Shown: piece after piece, positions 30,249-30,917 of the stretch
Numbering within the stretch: the stretch's first letter is position 1
Layout of the letters: every line of letters starts with the position of its first letter
From: Escherichia coli
GTDB lineage: Bacteria; Pseudomonadota; Gammaproteobacteria; Enterobacterales; Enterobacteriaceae
Direction: 5' to 3' (one strand)
Assembly: GCF_003334405.1 (NCBI RefSeq)
Contig: NZ_QOWM01000003.1
DNA: 64,000 bases
The notes under the pieces: model-generated
Database searches by the model: none
Told to the model about the DNA's origin: nothing
What the model saw: the letters and a program-made list of their open reading frames with translations, nothing else
Made by a program: the position numbers and the translations under genes

Positions 30249-30917
30249 TCCTTCCTCAATCTTGAGTAACCCCGTCGTTGAAGGGTTACTCAATTCATCC
30301 TGATTATACGCACTGTCATGGTGCAACTGCTTCAAATTAAAACTCTGGTCTGACTTCAAATAATTATCATATTATTTATTTGCGTAACGGGATATCAGAA
30401 AAAGATATTTACCCCATTAATTTATTAGGATGTTTACATCGGATTTGTGATTAAGCGTGGTATTATTTATTAGCGAAACGTTTCTCTCTTGATTTTTTTG
30501 CTCATTCATCAATTTTTCTTATTTTAAATTTACAATCCCTTTGGGGATTGACTTCTCTTTAGGGTAATTAATAGCCGTTAACTGACTGTTTTATGAGAAA
30601 AAGTGATATAACTTTTTATTCATTGCATAGCAAAAAATGTGATATTGCACGCACTATGTAATAACTTCTCCCACTGGCCTGGAACAACTGAACTTATTGA
30701 ACTATGTTAGAAAATACGCCAGTTTAAGTATCTGCCTGAACTGGCAAGGTTAAGCACAATGATATATCGGCGCGTATTCCGTTGCATAAGTGTGCAAAAA
30801 AAGTGGAAGACGTATCGAGATTTGTGCGTCTGATCGAGACATGTTTAAAAATGGCTTGCCATAATTAACGTTGTATGTGATAACAGATTTCGGGTTAAAC
30901 GAGGTACAGTTCTGTTT

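Follow-up and report, generated by a model that had tools for sequence, protein, structure and literature searches.

The 669-bp gap between yebO and yobF very probably serves as cis-regulatory DNA for the yobF-cspC operon, and the mgrB-yebO transcript ends at its left edge. Two mapped transcription starts (positions 30892 and 30716) fall within it, in agreement with the first-pass annotation of this DNA, which had suggested that the gap might hold the yobF-cspC promoter. In the arrangement that we favour, the mgrB-yebO mRNA would terminate at a stable hairpin, leaving a 3' end at 30297, and about 170 bp of unconserved AT-rich DNA with no detectable function would follow, at the place where other Enterobacteriaceae carry a hydrolase gene. 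A conserved remote module, consisting of Box A and Block B, would come next as a putative factor-binding site. The distal promoter P2 would then yield a transcript with a 202-nt leader, some copies of which would stop at 30793 in early stationary phase, and the proximal promoter P1, a strong sigma-70 promoter with an extended -10 and an A/T-rich upstream element, would supply most of the yobF-cspC mRNA. The main content of this region is already known, namely the yebO terminator, the tandem yobF-cspC promoters and the binding of H-NS and sigma factors, and the locus, sequence and promoters are those of the yobFp1/yobFp2 region of K-12 (EcoCyc/RegulonDB; Shimada 2014; Kim 2012), with no promoter differences. 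The remaining interest is modest and lies in the conserved blocks, above all the RbsR-like Box A, and in the stationary-phase 3' end at 30793; the literature that we read contains no discussion of Box A, of Blocks B, C and E or of the 30793 end. CspC is an RNA chaperone which affects RpoS-linked stress programmes, succinate use and PhoP activation in Salmonella, while in ageing E. coli colonies it affects fitness and yobF-cspC is a mutation hotspot; given these roles in stress, metabolism and fitness, an exact map of the yobF-cspC control region is useful.

Within the window (the whole 64-kb stretch of E. coli DNA that was analysed), the gap lies between the end of yebO at 30248 and the start of yobF at 30918, and none of the 64 intergenic gaps is longer (median 96 bp, second longest 428 bp). 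It has a GC content of 35.1%, compared with 40.6% for all gaps of the window and 50.2% for the window as a whole, and the lowest local GC inside it is about 0.30. The earlier description of a very long, AT-rich spacer at 30249-30917 was thus exact in its coordinates, and the remark that it holds no ORF over 60 aa in a sensible context also stands: no ORF of at least 60 aa is contained in it, with three such ORFs only overlapping the edges: 29995-30303 (+), 30138-30359 (-) and 30750-30956 (-). The window corresponds to MG1655 1874509-1938508 in reverse complement and differs from it by 10 SNPs, none of which falls in the gap, so that K-12 version-3 coordinates are obtained as 1938509 minus the window coordinate; the version-2 coordinates of older papers are 1976 lower here, as derived from the probe name IG1905616_1906284 together with the gene positions. 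The gap is single-copy and was found in 5424/5426 complete E. coli genomes at 95-100% identity, and the RefSeq K-12 annotation has no feature between yobF and yebO. For the comparative analyses we used 80 loci with a yebO relative, with one genome per species, and took from 75 of these loci the 520 bp that precede yobF for alignment with the window. All features are listed in Table 1.

Table 1. Genes, promoters, conserved blocks and other features in and around the yebO-yobF gap (window coordinates).
Feature	Position	Strand	Description
mgrB	29743-29886	+	
yebO	29961-30248	+	
mgrB-yebO transcript terminator	30262-30297	+	Hairpin 30262-30293 and Term-seq 3' end
AT-rich filler	30298-30471		Unconserved
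Box A	30472-30487		AGCGAAACGTTTCTCT; LacI-family-type palindrome, candidate operator
Block B	30497-30530		A/T-rich; family consensus GCAnTGTCATCAnnnTTTCATTATTTTGGTGCA; partly degraded in E. coli
Terminator-like hairpin	30533-30560	+	CAATCCC-TTTG-GGGATTG with T-rich tail, from consensus scan
22-codon ORF	30593-30661	+	Rejected as gene
Block C	30618-30656		Conserved GCAT...GCA, then A-run; about 60-100 bp upstream of P2 start
Promoter P2	30680-30716	+	TGGAAC 30680-30685, 17-bp spacer, cTATGTT 30702-30708, start 30716
P2 leader	30716-30917	+	202 nt
24-codon ORF	30759-30833	+	Rejected as gene
Block E	30782-30797		Palindrome TTGCA-TAAGTG-TGCAA; family consensus cGCATAAnTGTGCAg; contains the 30793 end
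Element upstream of P1	30820-30855		ATTTGTGCGnCnGATCGAGACA (about -72 to -49), then A/T-rich GTTTAAAAATGG
Promoter P1	30856-30892	+	TTGCCA 30856-30861, 17-bp spacer, TGtGATAAC, -10 at 30879-30884, start 30892
P1 leader	30892-30917	+	26 nt; GAGG 30901-30904; cold-box-like ACGAGGTACAG
yobF	30918-31061	+	
cspC	31074-31283	+	
rlmA	from 31449	+	

A genome-wide start-site study gives two primary 5' ends for yobF, which correspond to P1 and P2; these are the only starts listed for the gap, the gene-assigned start-site table having nothing upstream of P2. The P1 start was mapped at MG1655 version-2 position 1905641, which is window position 30892 (249 reads, 26-nt UTR), and the upstream sequence given in the start-site table ends in ...TTGCCATAATTAACGTTGTATGTGATAACAGATTTCG. 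A sigma-S ChIP-seq study works with the same start, and a SELEX table lists TTGCCA-17-GATAAC as the constitutive RpoD promoter of yobF-cspC. With its hexamers 17 bp apart, a -10 element preceded by TG and a mapped 5' end, P1 has the properties of a sigma-70 promoter, and it is invariant over the 75 Enterobacteriaceae loci. The element immediately upstream of it is also conserved at 90% or more in these loci, and its A/T-rich part (GTTTAAAAATGG) resembles an UP element, with a factor site proposed as a further possible function. Published work places the control of yobF by OxyS and CyaR at the P1 leader region. In a low-Mg study, a transcriptional reporter with roughly 200-500 bp upstream of yobF was inactive, which indicates that promoter output varies by construct or conditions.

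The P2 start was mapped at MG1655 version-2 position 1905817, or window position 30716 (107 reads, 202-nt 5' UTR), with ...CTGGAACAACTGAACTTATTGAACTATGTTAGAAAATA as the upstream sequence in the start-site table, and the promoter elements (TGGAAC-17-TATGTT) had been predicted from the conservation footprint ahead of the match with the published start site. Over the 75 loci the P2 elements are 80-99% conserved, with the family consensus cTGGAc..N..TTGAGCTATGGTAaAAAa; a recent paper uses the promoter names yobFp1, yobFp2 and cspCp8. The long leader that had been proposed for yobF-cspC is therefore present in the 202 nt transcribed from distal P2, but the stronger proximal P1 start gives a leader of 26 nt only. 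The -10 element of P2 has a C at -13 (cTATGTT), while an RpoS-holoenzyme SELEX peak is located near 30765 and a sigma-S ChIP-seq peak at 30749-30986, both of low resolution and also covering P1; from the promoter sequence and these peaks we infer that P2 can probably be used by both sigma-S and sigma-70. Since this C at -13 and the RpoS binding peaks are accompanied by a leader-internal 3' end seen only at OD 2.0, P2 probably has more weight in stationary phase. Support for use of the distal promoter outside E. coli comes from Salmonella 4/74, where the distance from the operon start was given as 172-181 nt for downstream Tn5 insertions 'in the 5' UTR' and as 546 nt for one in cspC; by our arithmetic these distances, together with the conserved spacing, agree with the P2 homologue and cannot be those of P1.

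The spacer is bound by H-NS and by the sigma-70, sigma-S and sigma-54 holoenzymes in the cited studies, either in vitro or in vivo. A genomic SELEX table carries an 'HNS' flag on the yobF/yebO spacer and places multiple RpoD-holoenzyme peaks 'within 670 bp spacer', and the GC content of 30-38% across 30300-30900 fits the earlier suggestion of an H-NS-bound region, which on its experimental side goes back to this table flag. An RpoN-holoenzyme SELEX peak is found near 30881, and there is evidence of repression of yobF-cspC by the RpoN holoenzyme under nitrogen limitation, with the repression upon nitrogen starvation being reduced in an rpoN mutant.

Across the alignment, the region 30820-30917, containing P1, its A/T-rich upstream element and the -72 to -49 element, is almost invariant (90% or more for the P1 region), and the region from 30249 to about 30460 and the remaining sequence outside the blocks show near-random identity. 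About 380 bp (30298-30680) lie upstream of both start sites and only about 100 bp of these are conserved, so that much of the gap length goes beyond any demonstrated function. Of the blocks nearer to the start sites, Block C has in E. coli a left half-site, AAATGTGAT, with its centre near -70.5, which may be read as CRP-like on the strength of its bases; a CRP genomic SELEX paper mentions yobF once. In 42/47 scorable loci Block E keeps a distance of exactly 92 bp to the -10 element of P1, and in most loci it is 68-71 nt from the P2 start. Two other types of candidate were rejected: the terminator-like hairpin at 30533-30560 is specific to E. coli (it is not found in L002-L004, the closest Escherichia loci) and has no Term-seq 3' end at 19079xx, and the promoter-like hexamers at 30337-30364 (+) and 30398-30371 (-) are unconserved and no more numerous than in shuffled sequences.

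At the left edge of the gap, an inverted-repeat scan identified the mgrB-yebO terminator hairpin with its 11-bp stem (TTGAGTAACCC / GGGTTACTCAA), which folds with -15.5 kcal/mol (z = -3.07, with 0/200 shuffles folding as well), and Term-seq gives a 'primary' yebO 3' end at K-12 1908212/3 (window 30296/30297) in LB at OD 0.4, LB at OD 2.0 and M63. The tail of this terminator is AAUUCAUCC and not a U-run, and the consensus terminator scan made no call there; its sequence is conserved in E. coli only, not beyond. The filler that follows has about 20-40% column identity to 25 relatives, which is near random, and is tolerant of insertion: E. coli strain SHP24 has an IS1 inserted at 30454-30462 with a 9-bp duplication, and E. 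coli strain 361 has an IS1-linked deletion starting near 30315. In 32 of the 80 related loci, including those of Lelliottia, Kosakonia, Buttiauxella, Cedecea, Phytobacter, Leclercia and several Enterobacter, a match to a metal-dependent hydrolase is found directly after yebO, with an ORF length of 331-335 aa where read (L008, L028), a yebO-yobF distance of about 1460-1585 bp, and a score of 60.8 bits against NCBIfam NF001911, which is under the family cut-off. The short form of the locus in the Enterobacter cloacae complex has retained the last ~60 bp of the hydrolase gene as a deletion scar. That the E. coli filler is likewise a non-functional remnant left after loss of this metallo-hydrolase gene, which would account for the unusual length of the gap, has in our estimate somewhat less than an even chance of being correct: there is no residual protein or DNA similarity to the hydrolase gene in the E. 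coli gap (best tblastn E ~0.9 in a 1.5-kb search space, and nothing below E = 0.85 with sensitive blastn), and either loss or gain in the Escherichia lineage fits the distribution. Such an origin would be compatible with the gap being the cis-regulatory region of yobF-cspC, and does not exclude it.

Box A is identical in 15/16 bases to the K-12 rbsD operator AGCGAAACGTTTCGCT and shares with it the 16-bp palindrome with central CG that is expected of an RbsR operator. The exact sequence GCGAAACGTTTC occurs once in the window, at Box A, while the core CGAAACGTTT is retained in 67/75 related loci reaching cspC, at 383-585 bp upstream of yobF, and the Box A columns are at least 90% conserved, on a par with the core promoter. 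The distance from Box A to TTCATTAT in Block B is 40-46 bp, and mostly 42-44 bp. The left half-site of Box A fits RbsR better than PurR or Cra. PurR and KdgR were rejected as Box A factors, as neither the half-site (CGAAAC) nor the spacing agrees with theirs (compared with the purT box). We nevertheless consider it unlikely that Box A and Block B together allow RbsR, Cra or a further LacI-family protein to act on yobF-cspC from a remote operator, through upstream activation or looping. Whereas the rbsD operator is located just upstream of the rbsD start codon, the candidate operator Box A is separated by 237 bp from the nearest start site downstream (P2) and by 413 bp from that of P1, and is found anywhere between 174 and 251 bp from P2 depending on the species, all of which is atypical for a LacI-type operator. 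In addition, the right half-site is weak (GTTTTT or GTTTTG) beyond Escherichia, Salmonella and Citrobacter, and Box A is missing from the Klebsiella and Raoultella loci. Our literature search gave no paper connecting RbsR with binding at yobF or cspC. In Salmonella, mutants in rbsR and in cspC did come from one and the same succinate-growth screen, in which no direct link between them was proposed; however, the rbsR phenotype acts via RpoS, an effect that a preprint, going by its citation in the Salmonella study, attributes to rbsD mRNA, whereas RpoS is normal in the cspC mutant, and the connection between RbsR and yobF-cspC is consequently only a lead. If such an operator were active, ribose or carbon status would be linked directly to the CspC RNA chaperone by RbsR or a similar sugar-responsive protein of the LacI family, and via CspC the Box A/Block B platform would also tie carbon status to stress and central-metabolism programmes.

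Within the cis-regulatory region of yobF-cspC, the P2 leader contains a second RNA 3' end, reported by Term-seq as an 'orphan' end at K-12 1907716 (window 30793), 125 nt upstream of yobF and in LB at OD 2.0 only. It is abundant, with about 265,000 reads compared with about 46,000 at the yebO terminator in the same LB OD 2.0 sheet, and together with the P2 start it implies an RNA of ~78 nt. The first-pass annotation had also allowed for an unannotated small RNA gene in the gap, but no start of its own is listed for such a gene, there is no Rfam family above noise and no covariation, the sole internal 3' end falls in the P2 leader, and the RNA 30716-30793 begins where the yobF-cspC mRNA does. 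It would be quite improbable, in our view, for the ~78-nt RNA to function as a small RNA derived from the 5' UTR, or to result from regulated attenuation, and not to be a mere product of decay or collision. Its condition-specific abundance, the position of its 3' end in the conserved Block E and the conserved length from P2 to Block E would all agree with such a function, but the end has neither a hairpin-plus-U-tract nor other terminator features, and Block E might just as well be a site in the DNA. Nor is there sequence conservation in the body of the RNA, as the first ~68 nt of the P2 leader are variable in sequence and constant in length across the family. In the P2 leader of 18 sequences from Escherichia, Salmonella and Citrobacter, RNAalifold found 4 invariant pairs and 0 covariation, and single-sequence folds were no better than shuffles (z = -0.39 and -1.07); a 5'-proximal hairpin is found in the P2 leader of many species, but it is not statistically distinct, with z below -1.5 in 22%. 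With its conserved length and fixed spacing, the stretch from P2 over Block E to P1 seems to be constrained as DNA and not as an RNA structure. The main text of the Term-seq paper is silent on yobF and cspC. The end might come about by collision with polymerase or the sigma-54 holoenzyme at P1, by Rho action or by processing. In its distal promoter, long leader and condition-specific internal 3' end, yobF-cspC resembles the stress operons with tandem promoters whose 5' UTRs contain premature 3' ends (Adams et al. 2021), but differs from that class in that the 30793 site has no intrinsic terminator and, being absent from the LB 0.4 sheet, has no Rho score.

The two short ORFs named in the first-pass annotation are chance ORFs, and it is extremely improbable that they, or the gap, encode unannotated small proteins, even though both have ATG starts, the 24-codon ORF is inside the P2 leader and hence transcribed, and small proteins are common nearby (mgrB, yobF). 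The 22-codon ORF is present exactly as described, whereas the 24-codon ORF exists with its coordinates shifted by 6 nt (30759-30833 instead of 30753-30827), and the absence of a convincing Shine-Dalgarno holds for both, with none at 30593 and only an AAGG about 9 nt upstream of 30759. When all ORFs of at least 10 codons in the 520 bp upstream of yobF were compared in the 76 sequences, the 22-codon ORF, which lies upstream of both mapped start sites, had a counterpart in 0/75 related loci and the 24-codon ORF in 1/75 (L002). Neither is conserved within Escherichia: at 30593, L002 and L004 read ATG AGA TAA and so stop at the third codon, and the ATG is absent from L003, while the ATG at 30759 is missing at the aligned position in L002-L004. 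The ORFs that do recur across species (e.g. 30782-30868) all overlap invariant promoter DNA and show no synonymous variation, and one ribosome-profiling supplement of novel translated ORFs has no entry at 19076xx-19081xx, which spans both named ORFs.

Finally, the only match in two permissive E-value searches of Rfam, apart from noise far below threshold (snoRNA, CRISPR-repeat), was to the 5' UTR of cspA (RF01766, cspA thermoregulator), to which the P1 transcript aligns over the whole model from 30898 with 135.5 bits, compared with a gathering threshold of 78. Like cspA, the P1 transcript has a cold-box-like sequence at its 5' end. The match covers only the last 20 nt of the gap and is driven largely by the coding region, and the aligned stretch in cspC holds the yobF ORF.

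In many Enterobacteriaceae the interval between yebO and yobF, at the place of the unconserved left part of the gap (the E. coli yebO-yobF spacer), holds a gene for a metal-dependent hydrolase, which is present in 32 of the 80 related loci with a yebO relative (one genome per species) and is not present in Escherichia, Salmonella, Citrobacter or Klebsiella among these loci. The predicted product is beta-lactamase-fold-like with an HNHYDH motif, and scored under the cut-off of NCBIfam NF001911. The members of the Enterobacter cloacae/hormaechei complex carry a short intergenic form. 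Compared with other Enterobacter, it still matches the hydrolase gene's final ~60 bp, together with the DNA downstream, at 73-81% identity, and it is a recent deletion scar (about 870 bp).

Coordinates of features at the yebO-yobF-cspC locus (L numbers, fetched related loci; K-12, version 3 unless stated)
Feature	Position	Detail
Hydrolase ORF	L008 4308-5303; L028 4310-5317	331-335 aa in these two loci, where the ORF was read
Hydrolase-gene remnant	L058, L069, L052, about 84-260 past the yebO stop	alignment to other Enterobacter
yebO start site	window 29942	19 nt upstream of the ATG
3' ends internal to yebO	K-12 1908368/71, 1908477, 1908502 (window given as 30032-30141)	Term-seq
IS1A insertion, strain SHP24	window 30454-30462 (L083 601-2046)	9-bp target duplication
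Deletion, strain 361	from about window 30315 rightward (L084 3001-3900)	IS1A adjoins yebO
Palindrome in P2 leader	window 30759-30766	GATATATC, 8 bp
cspA-model 5'-UTR portion	window 30898-31073	Rfam
3' end within yobF	window 31030 (K-12 1907479)	Term-seq, LB 0.4 and M63
Minor cspC start sites	version-2 1905571, 1905578, 1905588	inside yobF or just ahead of its start codon

From the right end of the gap onward, the 5'-UTR portion of the Rfam cspA model aligns over the yobF ORF, and yobF therefore sits where the cspA leader corresponds, so that this stretch, which includes the cold-box-like ACGAGGTACAG, is occupied by a small protein gene. The Term-seq 3' end reported within yobF is abundant and lies 44 nt upstream of cspC, for which three minor start sites are also on record. 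Within the leader from P2 (the distal yobF promoter) we found a palindrome, GATATATC, of which the ATATA core does not vary among the 18 Escherichia, Salmonella and Citrobacter sequences examined and the flanks are not conserved; it is located near a reported RpoS-holoenzyme SELEX peak.

With regard to the opposite strand, a study of sigma-S transcription in vitro reported enrichment of the minus-strand gap probe 'IG1905616_1906284-f' and of c2230 (cspC antisense), with ratios of 2.44 and 2.42, respectively, and these nearly equal values may reflect an antisense transcript spanning cspC, yobF and the gap. Among those tabulated in vivo start sites and 3' ends that were examined, none is on the minus strand of the gap or cspC.

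The yobF-cspC region was described as an IS-insertion hotspot in an ageing-colony study. In E. coli strain SHP24 an IS1A is inserted within the gap, immediately upstream of Box A (an RbsR-operator-like palindrome), and the RefSeq label of the SHP24 cspC ortholog (L083 2203-2412) is 'CspE', a naming inconsistency of automatic annotation. Strain 361 is a natural E. coli isolate without cspC, in which yobF, rlmA, mntP, yobD, manXYZ and yoaE are also missing and the deletion extends into pdeD. Finally, yebO has its own start site as well as several internal 3' ends, one of which appears in a table of Rho termination, and the Term-seq authors connect a yebO 3' end with a CyaR pairing site.
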